Of a stretch of 64,000 nucleotides of DNA, positions 10,991 through 36,625 are shown one piece after another. Every line of letters begins with the position of its first letter. Position 1 is the stretch's first letter. The DNA comes from an uncultured Bifidobacteriaceae bacterium. GTDB lineage: Bacteria > Acidobacteriota > Vicinamibacteria > Vicinamibacterales > UBA2999. The position numbers and the translations under genes were made by a program. The DNA is taken from NCBI GenBank assembly GCA_964505975.1, contig CAZDLW010000003.1, positions 2,947-66,946 on the forward strand, given 5' to 3'. The notes beneath the pieces were generated by a model that did not search any database, was not told the origin of the DNA, and worked only from the letters and a program-made list of their open reading frames with translations.

Positions 10991-10991
10991 T

Positions 10992-14506: not shown

Positions 14507-14593
14507 CCACCGCACGACCGCGACTGCTGCGGTTCGATGCATTCCCGACACGGCACAGAACGGCCGGGACGTGACGCCCTCCTTGGAGTCCGC

Positions 14594-15661: not shown

Positions 15662-15673
15662 AGGACCTTGGCC

Positions 15674-16351
15674 ATGCCCCAGTCGCCCCGACGTCGCGGC
15701 GTGGCACGTCCGCGGTTCATCGTGGTAGCCGGTCCGCCGTGCTCCGGCAAATCAACAGTGGCCAGGCGCCTCTCGGTGGAGCTCGGCTCGCCTCACCTCG
15801 AGATGGATGCCTTTCGCCGGCGGGTACTGCCGCAGTCGGATCAACGCGTCGAGCATCGTGACATCGCATACCGCGCGATGCACGCCGCGGCGGAGCTCCT
15901 GGCACCCTGGTGTGCCACGCTCGTGCTGGACGCGACGTATACGGCAGCCGTCTGCAGGCAGGATCTGCTCGGCACGATCGAACGCACCGGCGGAGATCTT
16001 GTCGTCGTCGAGTGCAAGGTCGATCCGATGATTGCGGTGCAGCGGTTCGAGAGTCGGGATGCTCATCCGGCGGTCGATCTCACCGCCGACCGCGTGACGG
16101 CCCTCGCCCGCGGCTATCCCTACTTCCCGGGCGCGTACATACTGCAGGGCGATCCCAGCCCCACGACTCATGTGTGTCACCTGGCTCTGGAGGGGTCCAC
16201 GCGACCGATGAGCCGCGTCGATCGCACCAGGTGGTGTCGGTACGGACAACCTCGTGAACGAGACGACCAGCGTGTGTCCCGCTCCGCTGCCGTGGTGGCG
16301 GCTTCTTCTTCCCCGTCGCGGTCCGTCGTCTCTCGAGCCAGTCGAGCGTGA
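15674..16351 (+). CDS. P-loop small-molecule kinase (AAA_33-like)
   Basis: IVVAGPPCSGKST Walker A, D..RR, LVLDATY, R...R lid motif. Confidence 0.7.
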   Translation: MPQSPRRRGVARPRFIVVAGPPCSGKSTVARRLSVELGSPHLEMDAFRRRVLPQSDQRVEHRDIAYRAMHAAAELLAPWCATLVLDATYTAAVCRQDLLGTIERTGGDLVVVECKVDPMIAVQRFESRDAHPAVDLTADRVTALARGYPYFPGAYILQGDPSPTTHVCHLALEGSTRPMSRVDRTRWCRYGQPRERDDQRVSRSAAVVAASSSPSRSVVSRASRA

Positions 16352-17903
16352 GGTGGCGTCTCCGCGTGTCGTGGGACCAGGAACAGGCGTGAGGCGGGAA
16401 GCGCGCGTGCTGTGGCTCTTCGTCTGGCTGCTGTGCGTGGGCTGTGTCACGCTGTTTCCGTTCGATTTCCGGTTGGCGCCTGCTGCGCTGACGCAAGGCC
16501 TGGAGACGTTCTGGGCCATGGCCTACACGCCTCCACCGGCCAGCGAGATTGTGCTCAACGTGCTGCTGTTCGTGCCTGTGGGGGCGTTGGTCTATGGCAG
16601 CGGCCAGGGCGGGCGTCGTGGGATGGGGCTCGTGGTACTCGCTGCGGCTGCGGGCGCGCTGATCTCGCTCACCGTCGAAGTGACGCAGGCGTTTCTCCCG
16701 CGCCGCGGTCCATCGGTGATGGACCTGCTCTCGAACACGATGGGCGCGCTCGCTGGCGCCCTCGCGCAGCGCGCGTGGGGCCCTGGTGCCGAGGCTGGTA
16801 TTGCGTGGGTGCGCAACCGGTCGCCGGCCATGCTGGTTGGCCTGATGACGGCGTTCACGGTGCTCGCGTTGCTCCTGTCGGCGGTCTTCCAGGGCCGGAC
16901 TCGGTTGAGCAACTGGAGCGCGGAGTATCCACTGCTCATCGGCAATGAGGGCACAGGCGACCGGCCGTGGCGAGGGCGCGTCTTCGCGCTCGAGGTGACC
17001 GATGCCGCCACACCAGCACGGCTCGTGCGCCAGTTCGCCGCCGGCGCGCCGCTGGATCTTCCCGGGAGCCGGGTTGCCGCGTTCCAGTTCGGAGGACCCG
17101 GGCCGTACCGAGATGCGACGGGAAATCTGCCGAGTCTCGAGTGGGTGAATCACCGCGATCGGTCCGGCCCCCCCGGTATCAGACTGGGTGCGGGCACGTT
17201 GTTGCGGACCGAGGGGCCTGCCGCGGCCGTCGCGCGACGACTTCGCGAGACCCACGCCTTCACGCTCCGCGTGCGGTGTGCCACTGACGACGCCAATCAG
17301 GATGGACCGGCGCGGATCGTGTCGTACTCGCGGGACGTCGAACACAGAAATTTCACGCTCGGCCAGCAGGGTGCCGACCTGGTGTTCCGGCTGCGCACGC
17401 CGAAGACCGGAGTCAATGGGAACCGGCCCGAATTGATCATCCCGGGCGTCTTCGCCGACAGGCAACCGCGAGATGTCCTCGTGACGTACGATGGAGCGAA
17501 CCTGCTCGTCACCGTGGCACATTCCCATCATGTCTCCCGGACGCGGTTGTACGTCGGCGCGAGCCTGGCACTGGCGGTGATCGATCTGGACATCAACGCC
17601 GAGGATGTGCCGGTCTTGAACGCGATGTACCTCGGCTTTCTGTTCCTCACTCCCGCTGCACTGGTGGGTGTGCTCGGACGCACGCGTCGCGAGCGCCTGC
17701 TGTTCGGCCTGTCCTGGGTTCTCGTCTTCACCGTCCTACTCGAGGGTACGCTCATGCGAGTGAGTGGACGAGCCTTCGACTGGGGCAACGTGGTCACGAC
17801 GGCCGTCGCGGGAACCGTTGTTGTCGGCGTGGTCGCGATCGCGCTCTCCAGGACGGGACGCGGGAACGTGTGGCGCGCTGACCGGCGTCCGGTTCGGGAG
17901 TGA
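16254..17903 (+). CDS. VanZ-family membrane protein with periplasmic LamG-like domain; start uncertain
   Basis: TLFPFDF, NVLLFVPVG, SLTVEVTQ.FLP.R.PSV.DLLSN (VanZ); Q.GPARIVSYS....RNFTLGQ.G.DLVFRLRTP (LamG-like); C-terminal TMs. Confidence 0.75.
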   Translation: MNETTSVCPAPLPWWRLLLPRRGPSSLEPVEREVASPRVVGPGTGVRREARVLWLFVWLLCVGCVTLFPFDFRLAPAALTQGLETFWAMAYTPPPASEIVLNVLLFVPVGALVYGSGQGGRRGMGLVVLAAAAGALISLTVEVTQAFLPRRGPSVMDLLSNTMGALAGALAQRAWGPGAEAGIAWVRNRSPAMLVGLMTAFTVLALLLSAVFQGRTRLSNWSAEYPLLIGNEGTGDRPWRGRVFALEVTDAATPARLVRQFAAGAPLDLPGSRVAAFQFGGPGPYRDATGNLPSLEWVNHRDRSGPPGIRLGAGTLLRTEGPAAAVARRLRETHAFTLRVRCATDDANQDGPARIVSYSRDVEHRNFTLGQQGADLVFRLRTPKTGVNGNRPELIIPGVFADRQPRDVLVTYDGANLLVTVAHSHHVSRTRLYVGASLALAVIDLDINAEDVPVLNAMYLGFLFLTPAALVGVLGRTRRERLLFGLSWVLVFTVLLEGTLMRVSGRAFDWGNVVTTAVAGTVVVGVVAIALSRTGRGNVWRADRRPVRE

Positions 17904-17922
17904 AGTTCGTGATGAAGCGTCG

Positions 17923-19470
17923 ATGATGTCCACTCTCGTGGGTCTCAGTGGAGCCAGGCGCAACGCGTGCGCCGCAATCTGTGTGGATGGACAGATACGC
18001 GCGGCGTGCGAGCAGGAGCGGCTGACTCGAGTGCGGGGCGTCGGCCTCGACACGTGTGGGCTGCCCGAGGAGGCCATCGACGAAGTAGTGGCGCTTGCCG
18101 GCTGCGCATCCGACGATGTGACCGGCTATGTTCTGGCGGAATCCCCCCTCAAATTCCAGCCGGCCGCGTCCGCCGTCGTGCTCGATCATCACGAGGCGCA
18201 CGCCGCCACTGCGTACCTGACGTCCCCTTTCAATCGCGCTGCCGTCCTCGTGTGCGACAGCCATCCCGACCGTGAGCTGAGTGTGTGGATGGGCGACGGC
18301 GGACGACTGCGCGACCAGGCCTGGCCCTGGAGGGGCCCCGCGTTCGCCAGGCTGTACTCTGACTGCGCCACGCTGTTCGCCTTGGAGCGCAACGGCAACG
18401 CACATCGACTGGAAACGCTGGCTCATCTGGGACGTGGTGACGCGGCCCGGCAACTCGAGCAGGTGCTCGGATACTCGGACGGGGGGTTGCAGCTCGCCGG
18501 CGACTGGCGGGAGCGGATCACACAGTTGATTCGACACGACCGCGGTCACCACGAACAGCCCATCGAAGCCGCCAGCGCCGTTCAGCGCAGGATCGGCGAG
18601 TTGTTGCTCGAGCTCGTGGCGGACATCCGTAAGACGGTCGACGCCGATGTGCTGTGCTTGAGTGGTGGCCTGTTTTTCAACACGTACTTCAACACGATCG
18701 TTCGCACCTCGGGGATCTTCGAAGACGTGTTCGTGCCGATCAATCCTGGGAACGCCGGCCTATCCGTTGGTGCGACACTGATGGTGGCTCGACAGGAGGC
18801 AAGTGGCTCGGCGAGCCCGCAGGAGGCCGTACACGAGACGGAGCCGGCGCGGTCCGTTTCGCCGTTCCTCGGTCCCGAATTCGACTCTGAAGCCATCAAG
18901 GCGGCGCTCGACGGCTGCAAGCTGGCGTACGAGTTCGTGAGCGAGACGGAAGCCATCGATGCCGCGGTCGTGGCGCTCGCCCGGGGACAGCTCGTGGCGT
19001 GGTTCCAAGGCCGGATGGAGTGGGGCCCCCGGGCGCTCGGTCATCGAAGCATCCTGGCGGATCCGCGATCGCCGTACGTGCTCGACAACCTGAATTTCTT
19101 CCTGCGCAAACGCGATCGCTCGCGGCCGTTTGGTGTGTCGGCCTGCCGCGATCGCGTCCCGGAGCTTTTCTGCGGCCCGCCGGTCTCGCCCTTCATGGAG
19201 TACGAGTACACACTCCGCAGCGGGCACCTGCAGCATGTCGTGCCGTCGGGAGCCAGGTCGATCCGCGTCCAGACTGTGACTGCCGACAACGGCATGTTCT
19301 GGACGTTGCACGAGCGTCTGGAGCAGGCGACGGGCAGCGGCGTTCTCGTCAACACCTCGTTCAATGGGTTCCATGAGCCGATTGTCTGCAGCCCTCGGGA
19401 TGCCATTCGAGTCTTCTACGGTACCGGGTTGGACATCCTGATCATGGGCCGGTTCATTCTCAGGAAGTAG
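17923..19470 (+). CDS. Divergent NodU/CmcH-family carbamoyltransferase
   Basis: EQERLTR, DHHEAHAA, LSGGLFFN, EWGPRALGHRSILADP, RVQTV, NTSFN...EPIV; several catalytic motifs altered. Confidence 0.85.
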   Translation: MMSTLVGLSGARRNACAAICVDGQIRAACEQERLTRVRGVGLDTCGLPEEAIDEVVALAGCASDDVTGYVLAESPLKFQPAASAVVLDHHEAHAATAYLTSPFNRAAVLVCDSHPDRELSVWMGDGGRLRDQAWPWRGPAFARLYSDCATLFALERNGNAHRLETLAHLGRGDAARQLEQVLGYSDGGLQLAGDWRERITQLIRHDRGHHEQPIEAASAVQRRIGELLLELVADIRKTVDADVLCLSGGLFFNTYFNTIVRTSGIFEDVFVPINPGNAGLSVGATLMVARQEASGSASPQEAVHETEPARSVSPFLGPEFDSEAIKAALDGCKLAYEFVSETEAIDAAVVALARGQLVAWFQGRMEWGPRALGHRSILADPRSPYVLDNLNFFLRKRDRSRPFGVSACRDRVPELFCGPPVSPFMEYEYTLRSGHLQHVVPSGARSIRVQTVTADNGMFWTLHERLEQATGSGVLVNTSFNGFHEPIVCSPRDAIRVFYGTGLDILIMGRFILRK

Positions 19471-19479
19471 CTCGTCTCC

Positions 19480-20298
19480 ATGCAGGAACTGATTATCGAG
19501 GCCGGTCGGACGGAACGGCAGTACTGGAGGGATCTCTGGCGGTATCGGGAGCTGTTCTACTTCCTGGCGTGGCGCGACATCCTGGTTCGCTACAAGCAGA
19601 CCGTTGTCGGGGCGGCATGGGCCGTCGTACGTCCGTTCCTGACGATGGTGGTCTTGACCATCGTTTTCGGCAGGTTGGCGAACATGCCGTCGGGAGGAGT
19701 GCCGTACCCGATCCTGGTGTTCTGCGGCATGCTGCCGTGGCAGTTCTTTGCGACGGCCCTGGCGGAGTCTGGTAACAGCCTGATCAGCAACGCCGCGCTC
19801 GTCTCGAAGGTCTACTTCCCGCGCATGGCCATTCCGGCGAGCACGCTAGTGACGAGCTTCGTCGACTTTTCCATCTCCGCGGGCATGCTGGTCCTCCTGA
19901 TGATCTGGTACCAGTACATGCCGGGTCCTGAAATACTGCTGCTGCCGTTCTTCGTCCTCGTGGCTCTCGCGGCGGCATTCGGGCTGGGCCTGTGGATCTC
20001 GGCGCTCATGGTCAGGTATCGGGACTTCAAGTACATCGTCCCCTTCATCGTGCAGTTCGGGCTGTACATCTCGCCCGTCGGATTCAGCAGCAGCGTCGTA
20101 CCCGAGCAGTGGCGGCTGCTGTACTCGCTGAACCCGATGGTCGGCGTGATCGACGGATTCCGATGGGCGATCCTCGGCGGAGATGTCGAGCTCTACTGGC
20201 CGGGCTTCGTGTTGTCACTCGCGATTATCGCGTTCGTGCTGGTCGGAGGCGTTCGGTACTTCCGCAGGACGGAACGCACATTCGCCGACGTCATCTGA
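19480..20298 (+). CDS. wzm: Polysaccharide ABC transporter permease
   Basis: RDILVRYKQT..G..WA, LVSKVYFPR, V.YRDF, YSLNPMVGVIDGFR, ERTFADVI; six TMs. Confidence 0.95.
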   Translation: MQELIIEAGRTERQYWRDLWRYRELFYFLAWRDILVRYKQTVVGAAWAVVRPFLTMVVLTIVFGRLANMPSGGVPYPILVFCGMLPWQFFATALAESGNSLISNAALVSKVYFPRMAIPASTLVTSFVDFSISAGMLVLLMIWYQYMPGPEILLLPFFVLVALAAAFGLGLWISALMVRYRDFKYIVPFIVQFGLYISPVGFSSSVVPEQWRLLYSLNPMVGVIDGFRWAILGGDVELYWPGFVLSLAIIAFVLVGGVRYFRRTERTFADVI

Positions 20299-20353
20299 GG
20301 GTCCCTGGTTCAGGCTGCAGGGACGACCGGTGTCCCGTACCGACACAACGGGT

Positions 20354-21670
20354 ATGAGCCAACCTATCATCACCGTCGAGCATCTCTCGAAACGCTACAT
20401 CATCGGCCATCAGGCCAGCCATGGGGATGGCCTGCGTCACGTGCTCGAACAGGCGTTTCGCAGCCCCTGGCGAATGCTGCGTCGAGCGGCGGAGCGTCTA
20501 TCGCAGCAGGAAGAGGAGTTCTGGGCGCTGCGAGACGTGAGCCTCGACATCCAAGCCGGCGAGGTCGTCGGCTTCATCGGCCGGAATGGCGCGGGCAAGT
20601 CCACAGTGCTCAAGATTCTCAGCCGCATCACCGAACCAACGGAAGGTCGAGTCCGTATCCGTGGGCGAACGGCGAGCCTCCTCGAAGTCGGCACCGGGTT
20701 CCACCCCGAGCTGACCGGGCGGGAGAACATCTTCCTGAACGGAGCCGTGCTCGGGATGAGCCGCGCCGAGATCGCGCGCAAGTTCGACGAAATCGTTGCG
20801 TTTGCCGAGGTGGAGCGGTTTCTCGATACGCCGGTGAAGCGCTACAGCAGCGGCATGTACGTGCGGCTGGCGTTTGCCGTTGCCGCTCACCTCGAACCCG
20901 ACATCCTCCTGGTCGACGAGGTGCTGGCGGTCGGTGATGCGGCCTTCCAGAAAAAGTGTCTGGACAAGATGGACGCCGTGGGGCACACGGGCCGCACCGT
21001 CTTGTTCGTCTCTCACAACATGCAGGCGGTGACGCGGCTCTGTCAACGTTGCGTGTTGCTCGACCGCGGTACGGTCAGGCTCGATGGCCCATCGCATCGG
21101 GTGGCCGCCGCGTACCTGAGCTCGGGAGTCGGCACGACAGCGGTTCGTGAATGGCCAGACCTGTCCAGCGCGCCGGGTGACGACGTGGTCCGTCTGTGCG
21201 CCGTGCGCGTGCGATCGGAGGAGGGTGAGCTCATCGACACCGTCGATATCCGCCGGCCCGTCGGCATCGAGCTGGAGTACGAGGTCCTGCAGCCCGGATT
21301 TGTGTTTCATCCCCACTTCGGCCTGCGGAACGAGGATGGGATCCTCTTGTTCGTGGCGCAGGATGTGGACCTGACCTGGCGGGGGCGGCGGCGACCTGCA
21401 GGCCGCTACGTCAGCACCGGATGGATTCCTGGGAACCTCCTCGCGGAGGGACCGATGTCGGTGATGCCCGTGCTGATGACGCTTGGGCCTGAGCATGCGC
21501 ATGCCGTGGTGGAGGATGCGGTGCTGTTCCGAGTCGTCGACTGTCTGCCCGCGACGGATACCTCGCGCGGCGACTACCCACGGCCTATTCCGGGGGTGAT
21601 GAGGCCGCTCCTGAAGTGGACCACGACTCGTGTACCGAAAGATCAGGCGGCTGGTGTGCTGATTCCGTGA
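20354..21670 (+). CDS. wzt: Polysaccharide ABC transporter ATPase with C-terminal carbohydrate-binding domain
   Basis: FWALRDVS, GRNGAGKST, GFHPELTGRENI, YSSGMYVRLAF, LLVDEVLAVGD, about 170-aa C-terminal extension. Confidence 0.95.
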   Translation: MSQPIITVEHLSKRYIIGHQASHGDGLRHVLEQAFRSPWRMLRRAAERLSQQEEEFWALRDVSLDIQAGEVVGFIGRNGAGKSTVLKILSRITEPTEGRVRIRGRTASLLEVGTGFHPELTGRENIFLNGAVLGMSRAEIARKFDEIVAFAEVERFLDTPVKRYSSGMYVRLAFAVAAHLEPDILLVDEVLAVGDAAFQKKCLDKMDAVGHTGRTVLFVSHNMQAVTRLCQRCVLLDRGTVRLDGPSHRVAAAYLSSGVGTTAVREWPDLSSAPGDDVVRLCAVRVRSEEGELIDTVDIRRPVGIELEYEVLQPGFVFHPHFGLRNEDGILLFVAQDVDLTWRGRRRPAGRYVSTGWIPGNLLAEGPMSVMPVLMTLGPEHAHAVVEDAVLFRVVDCLPATDTSRGDYPRPIPGVMRPLLKWTTTRVPKDQAAGVLIP

Positions 21671-23025
21671 GGCTGCCGGGAGCATTCGAGATAACGTCTC
21701 ACCGTACCGCGGCCGCGGTGGGCGTGACCGTTGCGGCCGCCAGGTCCTCCTGGCGCGTGCTGGTTCGAGTGGCGACCTGGACGGCCGGGCTCGCGCTGCT
21801 GCTGGTGCTGGTGCAGCAGCTGATCCTGCCGCGGTTGCCGGCGCGTGGTTTTGCGAACGGGAGCTTCGAAGCGGGTTATCTCGGCTGGAACGTCGGCGGT
21901 CACCAGCACCTTGCCGCGGATCATCCGACGTACCCCGCGAGCGACGGGTCTACCGTCGTGGTGTTCGACCACCCTGGCAACCTGCCCAGTCAGGCGGTGC
22001 TCTCCCGGACGGTCGCAACAGTTCCAGGTCAGCGCTATGGCCTCTCGTTCGACCTGGGCACCGTGGGACGCACTGCGGATCAAGCGATACGAGTCTCGGT
22101 GGCGGGCAACCGCCTTCTCATGAACAGTGTGTTCGTGGTCGCCAGCGCCGACGGGACACCGCCCTACACCACGCACCACGTCAGCTTCGTTGCCGATGCC
22201 GCCCGGACGACTCTGACGTTCGCGGACGTGTCGTCCAACTACTGGTTCATCGATGCGCTGCTCGACAACGTTCGGCTGGGGATCGAGCACCCCGACGCAC
22301 CGCTCGTGATACGACCGCCTCGACGGACCGCCGTCGCTGACGGCGCCGAGGCAACGTTCACCGTGGAGGCGTCCGGACCGGGACCCTCGAGATATCAGTG
22401 GCGTGTGGACGGGACCGACATCCCCGGCGCGAACGGCCAGACCTACACGATCGCCGGAGCCGACGGCAGTCACGCGGGGAGCTACAGCGTCGTGGTGTCG
22501 AATGCCGCGGGCACGGTGACCAGTTCGTCGGCGCGGCTGAGCGTGCTACCGCGCGCCATCCTTCTCAACGGCAGCTTCGAGCACGGATCGGCGGCATGGA
22601 CGTTCAGCAATGACAGCGTGGCGGTGTCGACGAATACGACGTATGGCGTGACCGACGGAGCTCAGCTCGTGCACTTCAACTGGGGCCAGCAGGAGCCGAA
22701 CGGCTCGGTGTCCCAGGCGTTCGCGACGGTTCCGGGGCAGGAGTACGTGCTCGCGTTCGATGTGGGCGCTTTCTCGCTGCTGAATCAGTACGAGCAGCGC
22801 CTGCACGTGACAGTGGAAGGAGAAGGGATGCTGTTATCGGCGCGCGTGTCGGTGTTCGCGCCGGGCAATGGATGGACCTACCGTCCCCAGACCTTCACAT
22901 TCGTTGCGGACGACACGGCGGCAGTGCTCACGTTCCGGGATGCATCACCGACAACGGAGAACGTCGATCTCCTGTTGGACAACGTCCGCGTGATGGAGGG
23001 CCGACACCGAGCGGCCTCGGAGTGA
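21667..23025 (+). CDS. Membrane-anchored DUF642(CBM-like)-Ig-DUF642 protein
   Basis: GTGA overlap with the wzt stop; N-terminal TM; two repeats NGSFE...ATVPGQ.Y.L.FD.G...FVAD....LTF.D...LLDNVR flanking an Ig domain (YQW..DG..IPGA...YSVVVSNAAG). Confidence 0.75.
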   Translation: MRLPGAFEITSHRTAAAVGVTVAAARSSWRVLVRVATWTAGLALLLVLVQQLILPRLPARGFANGSFEAGYLGWNVGGHQHLAADHPTYPASDGSTVVVFDHPGNLPSQAVLSRTVATVPGQRYGLSFDLGTVGRTADQAIRVSVAGNRLLMNSVFVVASADGTPPYTTHHVSFVADAARTTLTFADVSSNYWFIDALLDNVRLGIEHPDAPLVIRPPRRTAVADGAEATFTVEASGPGPSRYQWRVDGTDIPGANGQTYTIAGADGSHAGSYSVVVSNAAGTVTSSSARLSVLPRAILLNGSFEHGSAAWTFSNDSVAVSTNTTYGVTDGAQLVHFNWGQQEPNGSVSQAFATVPGQEYVLAFDVGAFSLLNQYEQRLHVTVEGEGMLLSARVSVFAPGNGWTYRPQTFTFVADDTAAVLTFRDASPTTENVDLLLDNVRVMEGRHRAASE

Positions 23026-23283
23026 CAGTCGCTCCAGACAGAGCACGAACGGTTCGGGTGTGTGTTGTAGGAATCCTTCCGGCGTCTCCCGACGGAATGT
23101 ACTCGTCGCGTCAACGACCGTGGCGTGTGCGATCTGTTGGGGCGACCCGCCATGCACCCTTCATGTCAGGAGTTGTCGTTCGTTCGTAGCGGAGAGGGCG
23201 TGTGTGAGATCGGATGTGGCTCGGGCCCGCTGGCGGATCTCGCGATCCCACGGCCGTAGAGTCCGAGGGAGGCGCAGGTTCTG

Positions 23284-26074
23284 ATGGTGGCTGACTTTCC
23301 CGATGAGGAGACCGAGGGGTCCATCCCAGACAGGTTCGAGCGGATGGCGCGCCGGTATCCGGAGCGGGTCGCCCTCGAGGGGCGCGTCCGGCCGCTGACG
23401 TACCGGGAACTGAATGCAGCGGCCAATCGTGTCTCACGAGCGATCCTCGCCCGCCGGGGAACGGCTCCTGAACCCGTCGCGCTGCTGTTCGAGCAGGGCA
23501 CCGACGCTATCGTCGCGATGCTCGGTACGTTGAAGGCGGGAAAATTCTACGTGCCGCTCGATCCCGTTCATCCTGCCGCGAGAAACGCTCATATCCTGGA
23601 CGAGACGGAGGCGGTCCTCGTCGCCATGCACGAGAGGACGTGCGAGCGCGCCAGCCAGATCCGTCCGGGACTCGACGTGCTGGATATCAACCAGCTCGAG
23701 TCTGGAATCTCCTCCGAAGACGTGGGACTTCGGATCGCTCCGGATGACCTCGCGTACGTGGCCTACACGTCGGGGTCCACCGGTGGCCCGAAGGGCGTGA
23801 TGCAGACCCATCGCAACGTCCTTCACAAGACCAGGACACATACCCGCAGCGCCGGAATCTGCGCTGACGATCGTGTAGCCCTTCTCTATTCTCACGCGTC
23901 GAGTGGTTCCGTGCGCGACATTTTCGGCGCCCTTCTCAACGGGGCCGCACTGTGTCCCTTCGATGTCAACACGGAGGGCTTCGGTGGACTGGCTCGGTGG
24001 CTCGCTGAGCAGGAGATCTCCGTGTACAACTCCGCAGCCACCCTCTTTCGGCACTTCGCGAACAGTCTGACGGGGCGGGAATCGTTTCCGCACCTGAGGC
24101 TGATTCATGTTGGCAGCGAGACCATCTACAAGAGCGACGCAGAGCTCTTCAGGAAGCACTTTGGGTCGGACTGTGTGTTCGTGGCGCGCCTGGGCTCGAC
24201 CGAGTTCAGCCCCATCCGGGAATACTCCATCCGGAGCGACACTCGAATCACGGGAAACACCGTACCGGCGGGCTATGCAGCCGAGGGTGCCGACGTGCTC
24301 CTGCTCGACGAGACCGGTGCCGAGGTTCGTGTGAACGAAATCGGAGAGATAGCGGTGAGGAGCCGCTACCTGTTCCCCGGATATTGGCGGCGTCCCGACC
24401 TGACGCGATTGGCACTTGTCCAGGATCCGCAGAGTCCGCATCTGCGAATCTACAAGACAGGGGATCTCGGCCGCATGGGGCCCGATGGCTGCCTCGAGCA
24501 TCTGGGGCGCAAGGACTTTCAGGTGAAGGTCCGCGGGTATCGCGTAGAAGTGCTCGAGATCGAGACGGTGCTCCGCAGCCTGGACTCGGTTCGCGAGGCG
24601 GCGGTTGTGGCAACGGAGGCGACATCTGGAGAACCACGCCTCGTTGCGTTCATCGTCGCCGCTCCGGCGGTGGCGGTGACGGCCGCCGATCTGGCGTCTC
24701 GTCTGCGCGAGATGCTGCCGGAGCACATGATCCCCCGGGCGTTCGCGTTCGTGGATTCCCTGCCGCTGACGGCAACGGGAAAGATTGATCGTCGCGCCCT
24801 CCTGGCCCTGGCGCCGATGGACGGTGGGGCCGCGTCGTCTGTGGCACCGCGGAACGCATTGGAAGCGCGGCTTGCCTCCATCTGGCAGACGGTGCTGAAC
24901 ACGCCGAAAGTCGGGATGACGGACAATGTGTTCGCGCTCGGGGCCACGTCGCTGGCCTGCCTCCGTGTCGTCAGCCAGATCGAGAAGGCGCTCGGTATCA
25001 GAGTGCCTGTGAGCACGCTCTTTCAGGCGCCTACGATTGCGGAGCTGGCGACGCTGATTGGCGATGCGGCTGCCGGCCGCGGACTATTCGCTGCGCGCGC
25101 TCCGGACCGTGGGCACCAAACCTCCATTCTTCTGGATTCACGGAGAGCTGAGCGACGCGTGGCTCCCCCTGTACCTGGATCAGGATCAGCCGCTTTACGG
25201 CATCGTCCATCAAGGTGAAGACGGAAGTCCGGCCCGCTACACGACGGTCGAGGCCATGGCGGCACACCATCTCGACCTGATGCGCCGCCTTCAGGCCGAT
25301 GGTCCGTACTATCTGGGGGGGTACTGTTTCGGGGGGTTGATTGCATTCGAGATGGCACACCACCTGAAAGCCAGTGGAGCGGAGGTGGGGCTGCTGATGG
25401 TGCTGGAACCCAGCCCGCTGGAGCGGTGTGGCGTATCGTCACTGTTGCCCTTGCCTAGCGACGCTCGCCCCAGATCGATCTGTGAACGAACCTCGCGCCA
25501 CGCCCAGGCGTTGAAGACGCTGAAGTCGTCACAGCGGCTCGCGTATGTCGCTCGGGGCGTGCAGGGCAAGGTGTCGGCCTGGCTGTCGCCGTTACGGGGA
25601 GCTGGCAAGAACGCGCTCTGCCGGACGTACCACTGGCTGCGTATTCCCCTGCCGCGTTCGCTTCGAAGCTTCTACATCCTGGGAGTGTACCGGCGCGCGA
25701 GGGCCCATTACGCGCTGCGGACGTATCCGGGACCGGTCACGCTGTTCGTGGCGGCGGACTCCCCGCACAACAGACCGAGCTGGGAAGGGCTGGCTACCGG
25801 GGCGATCGACATCTACAACGTGCCGGGAGATCACCACTCCGTGCTGAGGGACCCGCACTCCGTGCGGGCGTGGGCCGGGATCCTTCAGAGATGCCTCGAC
25901 AGTGCACGGAGACGCCAGGCGGCAGATTCGTCAGCGTGCGTCCCCTCTGCGGCCGACGAGCAGCGTATCGACGAGGTGGTGACGAGGAGGCCCGCGATCG
26001 AGGCGGTGTCGGCGGGTGAATCCTGTGCAGCTGCCGGTAGTGTCCTTCCTTCATCCGATCCGGGGCATCGCTGA
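23284..26074 (+). pseudogene. NRPS-like adenylation-PCP-thioesterase enzyme split by a frameshift near 25060-25090 (real lesion or assembly error)
   Basis: A-domain motifs LTYREL, YTSGSTGGPKG, YKTGDL, GRKDFQVKVRGYRVE, TGKIDR and the PCP (FALGATSL) are in ORF 23284-25218. The TE (PPFFWIHG, GPYYLGGYCFGG, VPGDH) is in the +1 frame ORF 25058-26074. Confidence 0.8.
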
Positions 26075-26158
26075 ATAGAGCGCCCGAGCGCCGGCCCGGC
26101 TCTCCTGAGCGCCGTAGGCAATCGGGAGCATGGTGCGGTTGCTGACGTCACACATGTC

Positions 26159-28015
26159 ATGACGGTACACGTTCTTGGAATCTCGGCCTTCTATCACGAC
26201 TCGGCCGCGGCGATCCTGCGCGATGGCGAGATCGTGGCCGCCGCACAGGAGGAGCGCTTCACACGACAGAAGCACGACGCGCGATATCCGGAACATGCCA
26301 TCGCGTTCTGTCTGGAGGCGGCGGGAGTGACCGCAGCCGACCTCGACGCCGTCGCCTTCTACGAGCGGCCGGTGGTGAAGCGCGAACGCTTGCTGGAGAC
26401 GTATCTGGCGTGGGCCCCGAAAGGGTTCGAGCTGTTTCGCGAGTCGATGCCGAGATGGGCGCAGCACACGCTCGACGTGCCGGACCGGATACGGGCCGGA
26501 TTGCCCGGGTTTGGCGGCCGCGTCCATTGTGCCGATCACCACGAGTCCCACGCTGCCAGCGCGTTCTTTCCGGCGCCGTTCGACGAAGCGGCGATTCTGA
26601 CCCTTGACGCCGTGGGCGAGTGGAGCACCAGCGCGATTGGCGTGGGCCGCGGATCGCGGATCGCCCTCACTCACGAACAACGGTTCCCGCATTCGCTCGG
26701 CTTGCTGTATTCCGCGTTCACGTACTACGCGGGGTTCCGCGTCAATTCCGGCGAATACAAGCTCATGGGGTTGGCGCCGTACGGGCAGCCCCGCTACGTG
26801 GATGTGATCTTGAAGCGGCTCGCGACACTGGCAGAGGACGGCTCGCTCGCGCTGGATATGCGGTACTTCGACTACGCCGCAGGCCTCACGATGACGTCGC
26901 CGTCGTTCGAGGAGCTGTTCGGCGGCCCGGCGCGTGAGCCGGAAGCGTTGATCACGCAGAAGGAGATGGATCTGGCCGCGTCGGTGCAGGTCGTGTGCGA
27001 AGAGGCGATGCTGCGTGCGGCCCGTCACGTGCATGCCCTGACCGGGTTGCCAGACCTCGTGATGGCCGGCGGTGTTGCGCTGAACTGCGTGGCAAACGGC
27101 CGCCTGCTCCGTGAGGGGCCCTTCGAGCGGATCTGGATTCAGCCGGCGGCCGGCGACGCCGGGGGAGCGCTTGGGGCTGCGCTGCTCGTCTGGCACCATC
27201 ACATGGGCCGGTCCAGGCAGCCGCAGTGTGGGGATGCGCAGAAGGGATCGCTGCTCGGACCGATGTTCCCCAACGACGACATCGGGCTGTTTCTCGACGC
27301 CATGGGGGCCACGTACGATCGCGTGGAGGACGAGACGGAGCTGCTGGATCGTGTCTCGCGCCTCATCGCGGATGAGAAGGTCGTCGGGTGGTTCCAGGGG
27401 CCGATGGAGTTCGGCCCCCGCGCGCTGGGCTGCCGCAGCATCATCGGTGATCCGCGCTCGCCGCGGATGCAACAGAAGATGAACGTCGCCATCAAGTTTC
27501 GCGAATCCTTTCGCCCGTTTGCGCCCTGTGTGCTGCGCGAGCATGCCGACGAGTACTTCGAGATGCGGGCTGGCGAGGAGAGCCCGTACATGCTCTTTGT
27601 CGCACCGGTGCGGCCAGAGCACCGGACGCCAATGAGCGAGGCGGATCGACAGAAGATGGCGGACCCGGATCTCAGGATTCGGCTGTCGGTTCCGCGATCG
27701 ACGCTGCCGGCCATCACGCACGTCGACTACTCGGCGCGAGTGCAGACCGTCGATGCTGGGCGTCACGGTCGCTTCTATCGGCTGATGCAGCGATTCCATG
27801 CGCTGACCGGTTGCCCGGTCGTCGTCAATACCAGCTTCAACATTCGCGGGGAGCCGATCGTGTGCACGCCCGAGGACGCGTATCGCTGTTTCATGGCGAC
27901 CGATATGGACTGTCTCGTGCTGGAAGATCACATCCTATTGAAGGCGGATCAGGTGTTCAGCCTTCTGCCCGACATGGACGGCTATCGCAAGCGGTACTCG
28001 AGTGCCCTCGATTAG
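26159..28015 (+). CDS. O-carbamoyltransferase (NodU/CmcH/SxtI family), canonical
   Basis: GISAFYHDSAA, QEERFTR.KHD, HHESHAAS, LTLDAVGE, GEYKLMGLAPYG, GGVALNC, GDAGG, IKFRESFRPFAP, THVDYSARVQTV, NTSFN. Confidence 0.95.
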   Translation: MTVHVLGISAFYHDSAAAILRDGEIVAAAQEERFTRQKHDARYPEHAIAFCLEAAGVTAADLDAVAFYERPVVKRERLLETYLAWAPKGFELFRESMPRWAQHTLDVPDRIRAGLPGFGGRVHCADHHESHAASAFFPAPFDEAAILTLDAVGEWSTSAIGVGRGSRIALTHEQRFPHSLGLLYSAFTYYAGFRVNSGEYKLMGLAPYGQPRYVDVILKRLATLAEDGSLALDMRYFDYAAGLTMTSPSFEELFGGPAREPEALITQKEMDLAASVQVVCEEAMLRAARHVHALTGLPDLVMAGGVALNCVANGRLLREGPFERIWIQPAAGDAGGALGAALLVWHHHMGRSRQPQCGDAQKGSLLGPMFPNDDIGLFLDAMGATYDRVEDETELLDRVSRLIADEKVVGWFQGPMEFGPRALGCRSIIGDPRSPRMQQKMNVAIKFRESFRPFAPCVLREHADEYFEMRAGEESPYMLFVAPVRPEHRTPMSEADRQKMADPDLRIRLSVPRSTLPAITHVDYSARVQTVDAGRHGRFYRLMQRFHALTGCPVVVNTSFNIRGEPIVCTPEDAYRCFMATDMDCLVLEDHILLKADQVFSLLPDMDGYRKRYSSALD

Positions 28016-28568
28016 GCCGCTGTCGCCGCTGGTGCTGTCTCTGCGCCGAGCGGATACCATCGCGTTCTGGCTGCTGGGCACGACTCTCGTGTGCGTATCG
28101 CTCGGGCTCGTTGCGGCCGTATGGGGCGCGCAGTCCCCCTGGTTGTGGGGAGCGGGTGGAGTCAGCGTGCTGGTGCCGGGGCTCGTCTGGGAGCCCTGGT
28201 TCGAGACCGGCGTCAAGGCCTGGAACAAAGGAGCGCGTCTGGTCGCATCCGCCCTCCGCACCTACGTCCTGATGGTGTGTTACTACGTGCTGGTCGGCGC
28301 TGTCAGCCGAGCCGGGGCGTCGAGACATGTGGCGCCCGAGCCGGCCCCAGTCGCCTCCCGGTGGGCCGCTCGACGGGGACGCGACAGCCGTGAGGATGGG
28401 GCGTTGCCGTCCATGGAAGAACGGTGGCGGCAGGAGCTCAACGCCTCCGCGCAGCGGCCGGGACAGGGCTGGGTCCTGTGCCTGTTTCCGTGCGTGTTCC
28501 TGTTGCGTCTCCTGGGTGAGGAAGGCCACGACGGCGTGCCGCCGTCGAGTACGTACACGCTCTATTAG
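28002..28568 (+). CDS. Membrane protein, SxtJ-like with SxtK(DUF5989)-like C-terminus
   Basis: TM helices, KAWNK...LRTYVLMVCYY segment, C-terminus PPSSTYTLY; overlaps the carbamoyltransferase stop. Confidence 0.55.
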   Translation: MPSIRPLSPLVLSLRRADTIAFWLLGTTLVCVSLGLVAAVWGAQSPWLWGAGGVSVLVPGLVWEPWFETGVKAWNKGARLVASALRTYVLMVCYYVLVGAVSRAGASRHVAPEPAPVASRWAARRGRDSREDGALPSMEERWRQELNASAQRPGQGWVLCLFPCVFLLRLLGEEGHDGVPPSSTYTLY

Positions 28569-28585
28569 CCGAGAGGAGGTCGAGT

Positions 28586-29719
28586 CTGTCGAGTTCCCTG
28601 ACGCGTGCACTGCTTGCTGCTGTCGCGTTCGTTCCGGCAGTCGTGCTGCTCCTGCCGGCGTTGGCCGCGGCCCTCGCACTCTTTCTGTTCGCGGCGTGCG
28701 TGCGCACCCTCGGGCGCTTGCTCGAGCCGCGCTTCGTCTCGTGGACGGAGCTCATCGCGTTCGACCAGAAGCTGGGGTGGAAGCCTCGGCCCGCGCTGGA
28801 CACGCATTATCTGGCCGATTACGACGACGTCTTCCGCATCGTGACCGATCGGGAGGGGTGGCCGGGACGCCGCTCCATCGAGGAGAGCCCGGTGGTGGTT
28901 ATCGGGGATTCGTTCGCATTCGGGTACGGGATGGATACGCCCCGATCGTTCGCGGAGCTCTGTCAGGTGTCCGTGAAGGCCGTCGGCGCACCCGGCTACA
29001 GCATGGTCCATGGCGTACGCCTGATGGAGGAATTCGGATCCCGCCTGTCCGGGAAGCTCGTCGTCTGGTTCGTGTACCTGGAGAACGATCTCCAGGACAA
29101 CCTGGCGCCGGAGATGCGAGGGTACCGCACACCGTTCGTCAGACCGGCCCCTCGGGGCGGGTGGGAGATTGTCGACGATCACGTCTCACCCGCCACATGG
29201 CATTCCTCTCGCCTCGATAGGCGACGGCTCTTTCCGACATTCTGTGTCCCGGGTCCTTTGGCCGATCGGGCGTATGCGGCCAGCGACTACCTGATTTGTC
29301 GCGCGCACACAGCGTGCCACGGGGCCGGGGCCCATCTGGTGCTCGTGACCGTTCCGCATCCGATACAGCTGACCGCACCCGGTCGGGTGCGGCTGGCCGC
29401 CCTCAGCGGTAGTCCGGCGTCGTGCGACGCGACGCTGCCGGATCGCCGGATCGCCGAAAGTTGTCAATCGCGTGGTATTCCAATGGTGCCAGGTGCGGCC
29501 CGCCTGTCGTTCCGCCACTACAAGCGGCGTGAGGGCATTCACTGGAACGCACGGGGCCATCGCCGCATGGCGACGTTGCTCGATGAGCTGTACGGCAGCT
29601 TCACGTCGGGCACCCTGACCGCGCTCGTCCCCCACAGTGCTGCCGAACCTGCCTCGGTGTATGCCAGTGCAGACTGCAAGGGAGCGGCGGGCCCTCCCTC
29701 GCCCCTCTACCGGACGTGA
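28586..29719 (+). CDS. SGNH/GDSL-like hydrolase or acyltransferase, membrane-anchored; probable CTG start
   Basis: D..LGW, VVVIGDSFAFG, GAPGYS, ENDLQDN, EGIHWNARGH; AGGAGGT 5 nt before the in-frame CTG at 28586 (next conventional start is the GTG at 28643). Confidence 0.75.
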   Translation: MSSSLTRALLAAVAFVPAVVLLLPALAAALALFLFAACVRTLGRLLEPRFVSWTELIAFDQKLGWKPRPALDTHYLADYDDVFRIVTDREGWPGRRSIEESPVVVIGDSFAFGYGMDTPRSFAELCQVSVKAVGAPGYSMVHGVRLMEEFGSRLSGKLVVWFVYLENDLQDNLAPEMRGYRTPFVRPAPRGGWEIVDDHVSPATWHSSRLDRRRLFPTFCVPGPLADRAYAASDYLICRAHTACHGAGAHLVLVTVPHPIQLTAPGRVRLAALSGSPASCDATLPDRRIAESCQSRGIPMVPGAARLSFRHYKRREGIHWNARGHRRMATLLDELYGSFTSGTLTALVPHSAAEPASVYASADCKGAAGPPSPLYRT

Positions 29720-30759
29720 TGGAGCACAAGGACCGGAGTGTGACGGTCCGTCGAAGAGGCCCGGGGCTGGTGACGCTGGAGCTGCTCACGAGAGCCTTCG
29801 CCCCCTCCTGCCGGACGTCGCGGCCCCCGTCCAAGACCGTAGCGATCGTCGTCCCCGTGTCGTCGCGGCCCGTACTGCTGCCGGAGGAAGAGATTGCGCT
29901 CCGCCATCTCTGTCACTTCCTCGGGCCGTACGACAAGTACTTCGCTGCCCCGATCGGGTCGCCCATTCGGCGTGACGGCTTCGAGACGAGTCAATTTCCC
30001 AGGAAATTCTTCGGCTCGCCGGTCGCCCACAATCACCTGGTCTTCTGGCCGGACTTCTATCGGACATTCGAGGAGTACGAGTACATTCTCATCTACCATC
30101 TCGACAGCCTCGTGTTCTCGGACGAACTGATGCGGTGGTGCAGAGCGGGGTGGGATTACATCGGCGCGCCGTGGCTTCCGTGCGCAGACACGCCCTGGGT
30201 GAAAGAGGCGCGCGTCGGGAACGGGGGGTTCGCGCTGATGAAGGTGGAAAGCGTCCTCGACGTGCTCGACGCGCGATATCGACAGAAGCCGGCGTCGTAC
30301 TGGGCCGACCTGCTGACCAGGAACGGGCGCTGGCTGCGACCCTTCTTCCGGACACTCGAGTGGCTGCAGCCCCGCCTCCCCCCGTGGGACACCATGAGTC
30401 GCGTGACAGGCCGCTGGCGCGCCAGTGAGAACCCGACTGCATACGGGTACCACAACGACCTGTTCTGGGCGTACGAGGCGGCAGACTATGTGCCTACCTT
30501 CAAGGTGGCACCGGTCGAGGATGGACTGCGGTTCGCATTCGAGGCGGCGCCGCGAACGTGCTTCGAGCTGAACGGCCGCCAGCTCCCTTTCGGCTGTCAT
30601 GCCTGGACAAAGTTCGATCGCGGCTTCTGGGAGCCGCTCCTGTTGCCACCAGCGGGAACCGCTCCGGAGGCACAGCCGGAGTGGGTGCCCTCAGAAACGC
30701 CGTCCCCCGGCCCAGCACAGCCTCGGCCCCGCATCACTGACTCGCGAGCCGGAAGGTAG
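29716..30759 (+). CDS. DUF5672-family protein, copy 2
   Basis: YHLDSLVFSDEL..WC...DYIGAPWLPCAD.PWV, VGNGGFALMKVE, LRFAFE, LNGRQLPFGCHAW; clearly paralogous to 2810-3676. Confidence 0.75.
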   Translation: MMEHKDRSVTVRRRGPGLVTLELLTRAFAPSCRTSRPPSKTVAIVVPVSSRPVLLPEEEIALRHLCHFLGPYDKYFAAPIGSPIRRDGFETSQFPRKFFGSPVAHNHLVFWPDFYRTFEEYEYILIYHLDSLVFSDELMRWCRAGWDYIGAPWLPCADTPWVKEARVGNGGFALMKVESVLDVLDARYRQKPASYWADLLTRNGRWLRPFFRTLEWLQPRLPPWDTMSRVTGRWRASENPTAYGYHNDLFWAYEAADYVPTFKVAPVEDGLRFAFEAAPRTCFELNGRQLPFGCHAWTKFDRGFWEPLLLPPAGTAPEAQPEWVPSETPSPGPAQPRPRITDSRAGR

Positions 30760-30774: not shown

Positions 30775-31689
30775 TCAGGCGATCCGCTGCAGCCACAGAC
30801 TGGCGCCGGTGTTGTGCAGGAACAATGGCATCTCCGCTTCGAAGCGATCCCGATGAAAGTGCTCGAGATAGGTGTTGAAGAATACGATGCGGTATGCGTA
30901 GTTGAACGTCAGGAAGGCGCGCACCATGTAGGCCTCGTTCCAGGCCCGTCCTTCGGCGACCCACTCACGAAAATACTCGAATGGGTACGGCACATCGTGG
31001 ACGTGAACGTACACACCTGCCGCAAGCGTGGGGAGCACCTCGGTGAGCAGGTAGACCACGTCGCTGCCGATCTTGGCGACATGGCTGGAGTCGATGAAGA
31101 GCATGTCGTTCGCCTCGAGCGTCGCGAACAGGGCCCGATCCACATGCTGTACCGGTGATGCGAGAAGCGTGATGCGGTTCCGGTCTTCTGCGCGGAGGAC
31201 CGACAGCAGGCGGTCAGGATGGGGCTCGATGAAGGTACATTGGATGCGGCCATCGAAGAACAGCTCGTTCGTGTCGAGCATCAGCGCGGACGAGAAGCCA
31301 GAGCCGACCTCAATGATCCGCTGAGGACGTACGTGGCGCATCATGCAATACAGAGTGAGGCCGTCCGCGTGCGAGAACATCGGGTTCTCGAAGTAGTATC
31401 GCCGTCCTCCCGCCGAGAACGGCTGCTCATGGTAGTACGTCACGAAGTCGTCGAACAGTGCGAGCTGATCCGCTTCACGGAGGTCGATGCCCGACAGCTC
31501 TGCCGGCACGCTCCACAAGCGAGAGGTCCGCAGCGACTGGTCGAAATCTGGCAGCGGCGAATAGAAGTGACCCGGTGGGACGAAGCCGCATCCTCGCAGC
31601 AGGGTCTCACGCTCCGCCAGGAGTCGAGCCGTTCCCGGCAGGTGCCGAGCGACGTACGCGGCGCACCGTTTCACGATTCTCTTCACCAT
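30775..31689 (-). CDS. Class I SAM methyltransferase (Methyltransf_24-like)
   Basis: [48 protein letters not shown]. Confidence 0.85.
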
Positions 31690-35115: not shown

Positions 35116-35275
35116 AGCGGGAGTGCCCCTCTGAATATCCGTTTCTGGCCGGATTTCTTGCCTCCCAGTGTCTGCTATGAGGAGGATGTTCTCTGCACGT
35201 TTCATCTCGTTGCGGCCGCCAGCGTCGGGCGGGTGGCCGAAATGTTCCACGGAGATACAAGGATCGTGAGGAGCG

Positions 35276-35291
35276 TGGCCATCTCTTTGCA
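35276..35291 (+). promoter_or_regulatory. Candidate sigma-54 promoter upstream of the export operon
   Basis: TGGCCATCTCTTTGCA: GG-N10-GC with TTGCA -12 box. Confidence 0.45.
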
Positions 35292-36609: not shown

Positions 36610-36625
36610 GACAAGGCACGTCGAG

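Follow-up and report, generated by a model that had tools for sequence, protein, structure and literature searches.

Introduction

The closest described relatives of the genes considered here are sxtI-J-K-L of saxitoxin clusters; in the available part of PMC2679770, sxtJ has 405 bp and sxtK 165 bp, together 188 codons. SxtJ and SxtK are uncharacterised in the accessible text of PMC2885083 and of a 2026 preprint, and the literature on sxtJ and sxtK together with a carbamoyltransferase, as far as its text was accessible, calls their products unknown or "hypothesised to work in conjunction". A second point of reference is the acyl-shuttle hexapeptide FXYXXF, which in the available part of PMC12148441 is found in the microprotein DltX and at the C termini of bacterial MBOAT proteins such as PatA, and from whose tyrosine an SGNH partner (DltD or PatB) receives the acyl group. 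In the literature searched, supplements being outside its scope, there was no mention of DUF5989, and the listings gave no link of DltX or of an acyl shuttle with carbamoyltransferases. Here, we analyzed a 64-kb window, the whole stretch of 64,000 nucleotides from contig CAZDLW010000003.1 of an uncultured soil bacterium, in which a block of genes sits inside a large polysaccharide gene cluster. The original prediction had read nine genes of this block (positions 17923 to 30759) as one system loading both a carbamoyl group and an acyl group activated by a nonribosomal peptide synthetase (NRPS)-like protein.

Our best explanation, held with slightly more confidence than doubt, is that the block represents three units, combined as a mosaic within a single large polysaccharide locus, rather than one system, and that it tailors a glycan by O-carbamoylation. 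The three units would be a backbone around the Wzm/Wzt exporter, a carbamoyl module consisting of the canonical carbamoyltransferase CT2, a 188-amino-acid (aa) membrane protein, and an SGNH enzyme, and a split NRPS-like unit of an adenylation-peptidyl carrier protein (A-PCP) and a thioesterase (TE).

Results

CT2, the membrane protein, and the SGNH enzyme recur as a module

A metagenome scan for the 188-aa membrane protein gave six loci, two of which (L028 and L029) are near-duplicates. A CT2-type gene (72 to 81% identity) was located directly 5' of the membrane protein gene in all six, and an SGNH gene (54 to 63% identity) directly 3' of it in all five loci that reached that far. A-PCP, TE, Wzm, Wzt, DUF642, and DUF5672 genes were found in none of the six. 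A VanZ/LamG protein was encoded in four of them, directly upstream of the CT2-type gene in L027, L028, and L029 (47 to 52% identity), and a relative of it lies upstream of the divergent carbamoyltransferase CT1 in the genus mate G436. The gene order in L027 was Wzc, epimerase, VanZ, carbamoyltransferase (CT), membrane protein, SGNH, epimerase, GT4 glycosyltransferase (GT), methyltransferase, two transketolase halves, Bac_transf, TylF, DegT, and GT2, and all other copies of the CT2 module were also found among exopolysaccharide (EPS) genes. In the metagenome relatives the module adjoins Wzc, not Wzm/Wzt. Judged by gene order and sequence similarity, CT2, the membrane protein (apparently a fusion of SxtJ- and SxtK-like parts, described below), and the SGNH enzyme are a conserved module, the same kind of set as sxtI-J-K-L. 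The comparison with sxtIJKL, already drawn in the original prediction, thus stood, the order and sizes of the CT, J/K, and SGNH genes being those given in the available part of PMC2679770.

The assignment of the SGNH enzyme rests on conserved blocks and not on its weak Pfam match (GDSL_2, E value of 0.006 for the window protein alone). GDS at residues 88 to 90, N148/D149, E297, and H300 were invariant in 51 sequences, as were three cysteines (C201, C225, and C274); a transmembrane (TM) segment spans residues 2 to 20. All 51 relatives matched GDSL_2 at an E value of ≤0.01. The family had 324 members at an E value of ≤1e-5 among the candidates scored, all of them unnamed, and BLAST and phmmer found no link between SGNH proteins of different cassettes, which are too diverged. 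No membrane helix was predicted in CT2, CT1, A-PCP, or TE, a hydrophobic stretch of A-PCP (residues 453 to 471) being read as internal. In the VanZ domain, E96-x-x-Q99, D111, and N115 were invariant in five sequences, and the polar motifs in helices 3 and 4 were present; the VanZ/lipocone motif names follow PMC12419801, the accessible text of which does not mention "carbamoyl".

The membrane protein resembles SxtJ fused to SxtK and ends in an invariant tyrosine motif

Alignments of 135 membrane protein family sequences were compared by hhalign with 18 SxtJ and 30 DUF5989 sequences from the phylum. The match to SxtJ (97.5%, E value of 6.3e-12) covered 116 columns, residues 14 to 130, and that to DUF5989 (51.8%, E value of 1.5e-4) ran end to end over the last 49 columns and was collinear with it; a custom SxtJ hidden Markov model (HMM) detected the membrane protein at an E value of 2.9e-5. 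On these matches the protein has an SxtJ-like part (approximately residues 14 to 130), a basic loop, a probable DUF5989/SxtK-like TM helix, and a tail. The family profile also ran across the adjacent J-stop-K genes of genus mates (query residues 23 to 184, with one internal stop) and matched the separate J (8e-18) and separate K (5.3e-7) proteins of G436. From size and position we infer that SxtK itself belongs to DUF5989. A single-sequence hhalign comparison with the genome's own SxtJ gave no match, and the link needed deeper alignments. The family initially appeared very rare, with four relatives in a word-indexed search and only noise from a four-sequence profile in 400 phylum genomes, a view that was overturned by a full HMM search with 645 representatives at an E value of ≤0.001 and 441 at ≤1e-10.

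The most conserved part of the family is its end. Among 100 aligned members the only invariant columns were W121, Y185, T186, and L187, and Y-T-L-[Y/F] formed the C terminus in 141 of the 150 best members, the other nine being shorter (91 to 179 aa) and stopping before the motif. Separate DUF5989 proteins ended in F-x-Y-x-x-F in 29 of 30 cases, the exception ending in MIYTIF. The loop at residues 102 to 155 carried on average 6.9 Lys plus Arg residues, compared with 0.7 in the tail, which had 3.2 Asp plus Glu residues, and the net charge of DUF5989 proteins was +3 before the helix and 0 after it. This charge distribution suggests a topology with the basic loop inside and the acidic tail outside.

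Related tails were also seen in two other settings. Locus L026 (G411:C174, positions 14531 to 19000) has a CT1-like gene (42% identity, metal-binding His motif lost), then an SGNH gene, and then an MBOAT gene whose product ends in SPFIYFQF. In L186, from Microseira wollei NIES-4236, a DUF5989-like frame is broken in two, one part ending in APFIYTLF, and adjoins a carbamoyltransferase fragment of 69 residues and oxygenase open reading frames (ORFs) of the Rieske and PhyH types.

A canonical cassette in the same genome and the distribution of DUF5989

The same genome carries a second, canonical cassette on contig C65 (L002, positions 4430 to 12580, minus strand), comprising a methyltransferase gene (49% identity to the gene at 30775 to 31689 of the window), a 469-aa SGNH-like membrane protein, SxtJ (Pfam, 5e-12), DUF5989 (Pfam, 1.2e-24), a CT with 57% identity to CT2, and AsnB. 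The 469-aa protein was linked by phmmer (2e-16) to a GDSL_2-positive protein of genome G411. The original prediction had seen no MBOAT in the window; this was correct, and neither MBOAT (PF03062) nor AT3 was found anywhere in this 88%-complete assembly.

The phylum-wide counts of DUF5989, MBOAT, and SxtJ come from 201 genomes, in which related genomes are not independent; the tallies include G152, G024, and G049, and the genus searches include G408, while the locus-level claims rest on none of these. With regard to INDEPENDENCE from MBOAT, DUF5989 occurred in 85 and MBOAT in 86 of the 201 genomes; 49 genomes had both, 36 only DUF5989, 37 only MBOAT, and 79 neither of the two. Thus, no MBOAT was found in 36 of the 85 DUF5989-positive genomes (35 of 84 when G152 is excluded). 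All 58 genomes with a Pfam SxtJ match were DUF5989 positive, and in 23 of 30 loci no more than 1.5 kb separated DUF5989 from a CT2-like gene. A wider set of canonical CT-J-K loci was examined by a Pfam scan of 121 neighbors from 17 loci, and neither MBOAT nor AT3 was nearby in any of the 17. One of them, L143 (G002:C1, positions 10089 to 14482), has the small and large chains of carbamoyl-phosphate synthetase (CPSase) directly downstream of its CT-SxtJ set, which fits a local supply of the carbamoyl donor.

A genus-conserved backbone

Contig C11 of G436 carries, in this order, DUF642-like, NTP-transferase, GMC oxidoreductase, CT (42 to 46% identity), J, K, and SGNH (42%) genes, the SGNH ortholog matching Pfam ALGX at 6.6e-7. 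These are followed by UDP-glucose dehydrogenase, RmlC (58%), DRL (59%), VanZ (49%), CT1 (64%), Wzm (71%), and Wzt (71%), and then by a 448-aa uncharacterised gene, DUF5672 (51%), and genes for a sulfotransferase, GTs, a PEP-CTERM protein, Wza, and Wzc, the last of these split. Thus, a second polysaccharide locus contains everything in the predicted set except A-PCP/TE, although in a different order. Compared with G436, the window has DUF642, A-PCP/TE, CT2, membrane protein, and SGNH genes between Wzt and DUF5672; genome G413 has Wzm/Wzt orthologs (71 to 73% identity) with none of DUF642, A-PCP/TE, CT2, membrane protein, or SGNH beside them. By this comparison, VanZ/LamG, CT1, Wzm, Wzt, and DUF5672 are a genus-conserved backbone shared with G436. 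The gene arrangement is nonrandom, since its sub-blocks recur in other genomes. The co-occurrence expected for a single system held in G436 for CT, J/K, SGNH, VanZ, CT1, Wzm/Wzt, DUF5672, and DUF642-like genes but failed for A-PCP/TE.

The G436 CT matches CT2 in three frames (L175, G436:C11, positions 5645 to 7512), which may reflect sequencing indels rather than real breaks in this assembly with few contigs. In L022 (G403:C40, positions 5591 to 11284), a 954-aa CT-methyltransferase fusion lies between an ORF with a Wzt_C domain, which looks partial, and a K-like ORF followed by a 527-aa SGNH protein.

The A-PCP/TE unit stands outside the conserved set

The A and carrier domains end near position 25060, and the last approximately 52 codons of that ORF are Arg rich and out of frame. 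The TE takes up the +1 frame at precisely the point where the fused relatives read on, overlapping this tail and aligning to residues 630 to 904 of P0009, the best nonself match (56% identity), which is a single 906-aa A-PCP-TE protein. The unit is accordingly not the one gene that had been described. We compared positions 24700 to 25449 with Logan contigs from runs of two studies, one of which (X1, 2019) may be the source sample while the other (X3, 2022) is from a different study; the frame break was identical in the contigs of both, with no differing letter or gap. The break is therefore real in the DNA, although Logan contigs drop rare variants and a minority intact allele may escape this comparison.

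The motifs of the unit were kept: the carrier Ser, Lys517 (present in 116 of 120 relatives), the TE nucleophile Cys in GGYCFGG (present in 8 of 10 fused relatives), and the His of GDHH. The genome has two phosphopantetheinyl transferase genes. In A domains Asp235 binds the alpha-amino group; in a HMMER alignment to two gramicidin synthase modules this position is Ser in the window protein, and in 120 relatives the column held Ser (39), Ala (27), Asn (23), Val (9), Thr (8), and Gly (8), with no frequent Asp. Since Asp235 is replaced, the A-PCP probably activates a carboxylic acid other than an alpha-amino acid. A glycine-type A domain, suggested by a 501-bit match to a linear gramicidin synthase PDB entry, was rejected because that score is the sum of two modules of approximately 248 bits each.

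The A-PCP family comprised 6,827 proteins at an E value of ≤1e-30 among 8,000 candidates scored, and 10 of the 120 listed matches carried a TE domain. Relatives of CT1, CT2, the membrane protein, SGNH, DUF5672, VanZ, and DUF642 (E value of ≤1e-8) were found in 0 of 80 A-PCP genome loci, and only one of the 80 (L096, from a Verrucomicrobia metagenome-assembled genome [MAG]) held Wzm and Wzt (50% and 55% identity). In a Pfam scan of 13 A-PCP loci, 9 were beside or fused with condensation domain NRPS, 1 was a glycan locus (L096), and 3 were of other kinds. Among 12 A-PCP-TE loci, glycan-type neighbors were seen in L096, L099 (same MAG), L042 (one GT4), and L104 (PGA_cap). The closest A-PCP in the genus had 43% identity, and in G412 an A-PCP-TE (40 to 42% and 26% identity) and a Wzt-Wzm pair (44% and 50%) are in convergent orientation. 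Thus, three loci, belonging to two phyla, have A-PCP-TE next to Wzm/Wzt, and elsewhere A-PCP-TE never accompanies the carbamoyl module. On these comparisons A-PCP/TE is an accessory of this one locus, which possibly acylates the ABC-exported glycan in the cytoplasm and may be decaying. A use of its product as a chain-end cap for the Wzt C-terminal domain was considered and rejected: this domain has 67 to 75% identity in G436 and G413, which have no A-PCP/TE, and the corresponding domain of L096 and G412, where A-PCP/TE is present, is unrelated.

Gene inventory of the window

The window has a G+C content of approximately 64%. A Pfam/NCBIfam scan of its ORFs bore out the polysaccharide setting: sugar-nucleotide, glycosyltransferase, and export genes fill the 64 kb from end to end, with precursor genes (SIS, GHMP kinase, and NTP-transferase/HAD of heptose type, deoxysugar enzymes, epimerases, and C-methyltransferases), glycosyltransferases, the Wzm/Wzt ABC exporter, and a porin/Wza/Wzc/Wzy set. 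All nine named genes were recovered on the plus strand in their predicted positions by ORF calls, Pfam, and NCBIfam. The "several overlapping stop/start codons" of the original prediction came down to two true overlaps, of 14 nt between CT2 and the membrane protein and of 4 nt between SGNH and DUF5672, with gaps of 258 nt before A-PCP, 84 nt before CT2, and 74 nt before SGNH. Rfam, repeat, and promoter/terminator scans gave nothing useful.

Table 1. Genes of the block and its immediate neighbors in the 64-kb window
Feature	Coordinates	Strand	Evidence
VanZ (lipocone) membrane domain, LamG-like domain, and three C-terminal TM helices	16254..17903	+	Pfam VanZ 2.4e-13
CT1, divergent carbamoyltransferase	17923..19470	+	Carbam_trans_C 1.6e-44; N domain only partial, 5.1e-19
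Wzm, ABC-2 permease	19480..20298	+	ABC2_membrane 1.5e-19
Wzt, ATPase with 183-aa C-terminal extension	ORF 20183..21670	+	ABC_tran 1.9e-22
Signal-anchored DUF642/choice-of-anchor-C + Ig + CBM_4_9 protein	21616..23025, start uncertain	+	Pfam/NCBIfam
A-PCP ORF	23284..25218	+	TIGR01733, 325 bits (cutoff, 317)
TE ORF, +1 frame	25058/25064..26074	+	Thioesterase 1.4e-18
CT2, canonical O-carbamoyltransferase	26159..28015	+	Carbam_trans_N 3.9e-88; Carbam_trans_C 1.4e-70
188-aa membrane protein, tail ...PPSSTYTLY	28002..28568	+	SxtJ-like + DUF5989/SxtK-like by hhalign
SGNH enzyme, one N-terminal TM anchor	28643..29719	+	GDSL_2 E 0.006; conserved blocks
DUF5672 protein, second copy in window	29716..30759	+	Pfam 4.5e-46
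Methyltransf_24 protein, possibly associated	30775..31689	-	Pfam 5.3e-10; 49% identical paralog adjoins contig C65 cassette

The true start of the VanZ/LamG gene is probably near 16392, and that of Wzt is likely at 20330 or 20354, while the CT1 start is consistent with the CT1-CT2 alignment. CT1 and CT2 share 28% identity, CT1 retaining DHHEAHA and GPRALG, and CT2 matched the solved proteins GdmN, NovN, and TobZ at 1e-74 to 1e-89. The exporter has the ABC-2 permease and ATPase pair of Wzm/Wzt export; the TagH/Wzt-type NCBIfam matches of Wzt (1e-56 and 3e-55) were under the cutoff, and the equivalog cutoffs of the pair were not reached. The 183-aa extension of Wzt had no Pfam match, including to the Wzt_C glycan-binding domain, but showed the conservation in G436 and G413 noted above. 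The DUF642 protein has one hydrophobic N-terminal segment and a relative with 35% identity in the G436 locus, and no solved relative of the DUF5672 protein was found.

Elsewhere in the window, the first DUF5672 copy lies at 2693 to 3676. The region from 2693 to 15661 encodes SIS, NTP-transferase/HAD, GHMP kinase, a DRL oxidoreductase, two C-methyltransferase-type proteins, and three dTDP-sugar isomerase-like ORFs, which suggests a precursor pathway for a modified heptose or deoxysugar. A second export route (BBP2_2 porin, Wza, Wzc, DegT, and Wzy) is located at 35158 to 42471, and at 53848 to 56256, directly before a Bac_transf initiating transferase, is a gene for an 802-aa protein whose sole Pfam match is a spermine/spermidine synthase-like domain (1.2e-10).

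Discussion

Within the mosaic, the backbone would export a glycan through the Wzm/Wzt ABC transporter, and the CT2 module most likely serves to add O-carbamoyl groups to a lipid-linked or exported glycan, or to edit such groups there. By analogy with the acyl shuttles, one possible route is a relay in which a tyrosine passes the group to the SGNH enzyme in the periplasm. In such a relay the cytoplasmic CT2 would make an activated carbamoyl group. The membrane protein would accept this group on its invariant tyrosine near the C terminus, predicted to lie outside the membrane, and pass it on to the SGNH enzyme, much like DltX and PatA with acyl groups although no MBOAT would take part. The group would finally sit on the glycan, either at the membrane or beyond it, and candidates for the membrane passage are the SxtJ-like helices or VanZ. 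More generally, and with clearly more doubt than confidence, we tentatively propose that sets of CT, SxtJ, SxtK/DUF5989, and SGNH, with J and K either separate or joined as in the window, could be a third trans-envelope machine for polymer modification beside MBOAT-SGNH and AT3-SGNH, in which the tyrosine would relay carbamoyl or acyl groups from CT to SGNH without an MBOAT.

Several observations weigh against our best explanation. With regard to the membrane protein, there was no Pfam or NCBIfam match even at an E value of ≤10, the Pfam SxtJ and DUF5989 models miss it, and profile comparison alone gives it only a weak likeness to DUF5989 (51.8%). The tail of the window family is [SNGD]-[TI]-Y-T-L-[YF], with S, N, G, or D at the position of the first Phe of the shuttle motif. 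With regard to distribution, DUF5989 and MBOAT are positively associated across the genomes (49, 36, 37, and 79 in the four classes), a Pfam-detectable SGNH (GDSL_2) neighbor was present in only 4 of the 17 canonical CT-J-K loci, and the settings of those loci were mixed, some with glycan genes and others with ribosomal, DnaB, or Mla housekeeping genes. The acceptor in sxt clusters, moreover, is a small molecule. With regard to the chemistry, a cytoplasmic CT2 needs a conduit to reach a periplasmic tyrosine, and none was identified. In serine hydrolases, moreover, a carbamoyl-serine intermediate usually persists for a long time, so that in chemical terms an SGNH enzyme is an awkward candidate for a carbamoyl transferase.

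The alternative that survives best, possible although we rate it as less than even, is that carbamoylation is confined to the cytoplasm. The acceptor of CT2 would be a nucleotide sugar or, at the inner face, the glycan linked to undecaprenyl; the SxtJ/K-like protein would only tether or orient CT2 at the membrane, and the SGNH protein would work in the periplasm as an esterase that trims carbamoyl or acetyl groups, a role like the one proposed for SxtL. Every CT2 relative with a solved structure is a soluble enzyme acting directly on hydroxyl acceptors, the 14-nt overlap of the CT2 and membrane protein genes fits a complex, and WapO is a putative stand-alone heptose carbamoyltransferase in the available part of PMC8005017; in that of PMC2679770, SxtL is a proposed decarbamoylase and SxtJ/K are proposed to act "in conjunction" with SxtI. 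However, a tether does not account for the fact that conservation in the membrane protein is highest in its last four residues, nor for the likeness of this tail to the DltX/MBOAT acyl-shuttle motif.

A second alternative concerns A-PCP/TE, and we find it doubtful that this unit is a decaying remnant without a present role. The frame change between PCP and TE, where the closest relative is one 906-aa protein, its identity in contigs of two studies, and the presence of A-PCP/TE at this locus only in this genome within the genus agree with decay, whereas the PCP Ser, Lys517, the Cys nucleophile, and the GDHH His are all kept, there are no further stops, and translation of a TE on its own could begin at an in-frame ATG at 25064.

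We consider it improbable that carbamoyl and acyl loading are integrated as in the original prediction, with an acyl group from A-PCP passing in a Dlt-like manner through the Tyr-tailed membrane protein to SGNH alongside carbamoylation. A carrier, a Tyr-tailed membrane protein, and a membrane-anchored SGNH protein do occur within 5 kb, the Dlt pathway uses such parts (PMC12148441, available part), and the genome has two phosphopantetheinyl transferases. However, A-PCP/TE is absent from all six metagenome loci and from G436, all of which retain CT, J/K, and SGNH, the CT, membrane protein, or SGNH genes occur in 0 of 80 A-PCP family loci, there is no MBOAT, and the A-PCP/TE gene is split. The comparisons thus do not show a joint loading system, because A-PCP/TE falls outside the conserved set and its gene is split by a frame change. 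Finally, that A-PCP/TE and the carbamoyltransferases make a carbamoylated, acylated small molecule exported by the ABC transporter is very unlikely, for although 9 of the 13 sampled A-PCP relatives are NRPS loading modules, sxtIJKL tailors a small molecule, and canonical CT-J-K sets are often outside glycan loci, the Pfam scan found no condensation domain or other NRPS or polyketide synthase (PKS) gene in the 64 kb, Wzm/Wzt is of the glycan/teichoic acid export type, and every other copy of the CT2 module lies among EPS genes.

Carbamoyl and acyl decorations alter the recognition of surface glycans by phages, hosts, and antibiotics, and the CT2 module points to a modification of exported polymers without MBOAT or AT3. 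SxtJ/SxtK-type genes accompany one carbamoyltransferase branch in 85 of the 201 phylum genomes without an assigned role. If the machine proposed above exists, it would give a function to SxtJ, SxtK, and SxtL, which the accessible literature so far calls unknown or hypothesised, and the link of the invariant tyrosine tail to the DltX/PatA shuttle motif makes the mechanism directly testable. The fused SxtJ-SxtK family, with its 645 representatives and no Pfam model, is also a gap in annotation.

Comparison with known systems

The carbamoyl module is like sxtI-J-K-L (PMC2679770, available part) in its order of a CT, membrane ORFs of approximately 134 and 54 aa (134 + 54 = 188 aa, here fused), and a GDSL/SGNH protein. 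CT2 is an SxtI-like CT with both Pfam domains, the homology to SxtJ is seen by profile, and the window SGNH enzyme agrees with SxtL in position and GDSL/SGNH class, with blocks I, III, and V invariant. It differs in its polysaccharide context and in its J and K, which form one protein and have diverged beyond the reach of the Pfam models; among the Pfam matches of the window ORFs scanned, the rest of the saxitoxin pathway was missing, with no PKS-like protein, amidinotransferase, or Rieske oxygenase.

With the Dlt pathway (DltA-DltC-DltB-DltX-DltD) the block shares an A domain plus carrier, a small membrane protein with a predicted outward C-terminal Tyr motif, and a membrane-anchored SGNH-type partner. 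In contrast to Dlt, no MBOAT (DltB) was found in its genome, a CT and not A-PCP is the conserved partner on the cytoplasmic side, the tail has no first Phe of FxYxxF, and the A domain scores 219 bits on TIGR01734 (DltA) against a cutoff of 560. The proposed relay is likewise similar to O-acetylation by PatA/PatB and AlgI/AlgJ/AlgX, in which the Tyr of a C-terminal hexapeptide hands the group to a periplasmic SGNH protein, but the Tyr tail would be on an SxtJ/K-type protein instead of an MBOAT and the donor would be carbamoyl-AMP or carbamoyl phosphate instead of acetyl coenzyme A.

The A-PCP/TE unit resembles NRPS loading modules and A-PCP-TE proteins in identity (45 to 56%), domain order, and loss of Asp235; it differs from them in having no downstream condensation module, in being split by a frame change, and in standing beside Wzm/Wzt, as only L096 and G412 do among the loci examined. 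A last counterpart is WapO (PA5005), the putative heptose 7-O-carbamoyltransferase of the Pseudomonas lipopolysaccharide core, which the available part of PMC8005017 describes as a stand-alone putative enzyme and which in that respect differs from CT2. Like CT2 it is a NodU/CmcH-family enzyme of glycan O-carbamoylation, and the window also encodes SIS, GHMP kinase, and NTP-transferase/HAD proteins of the heptose type.

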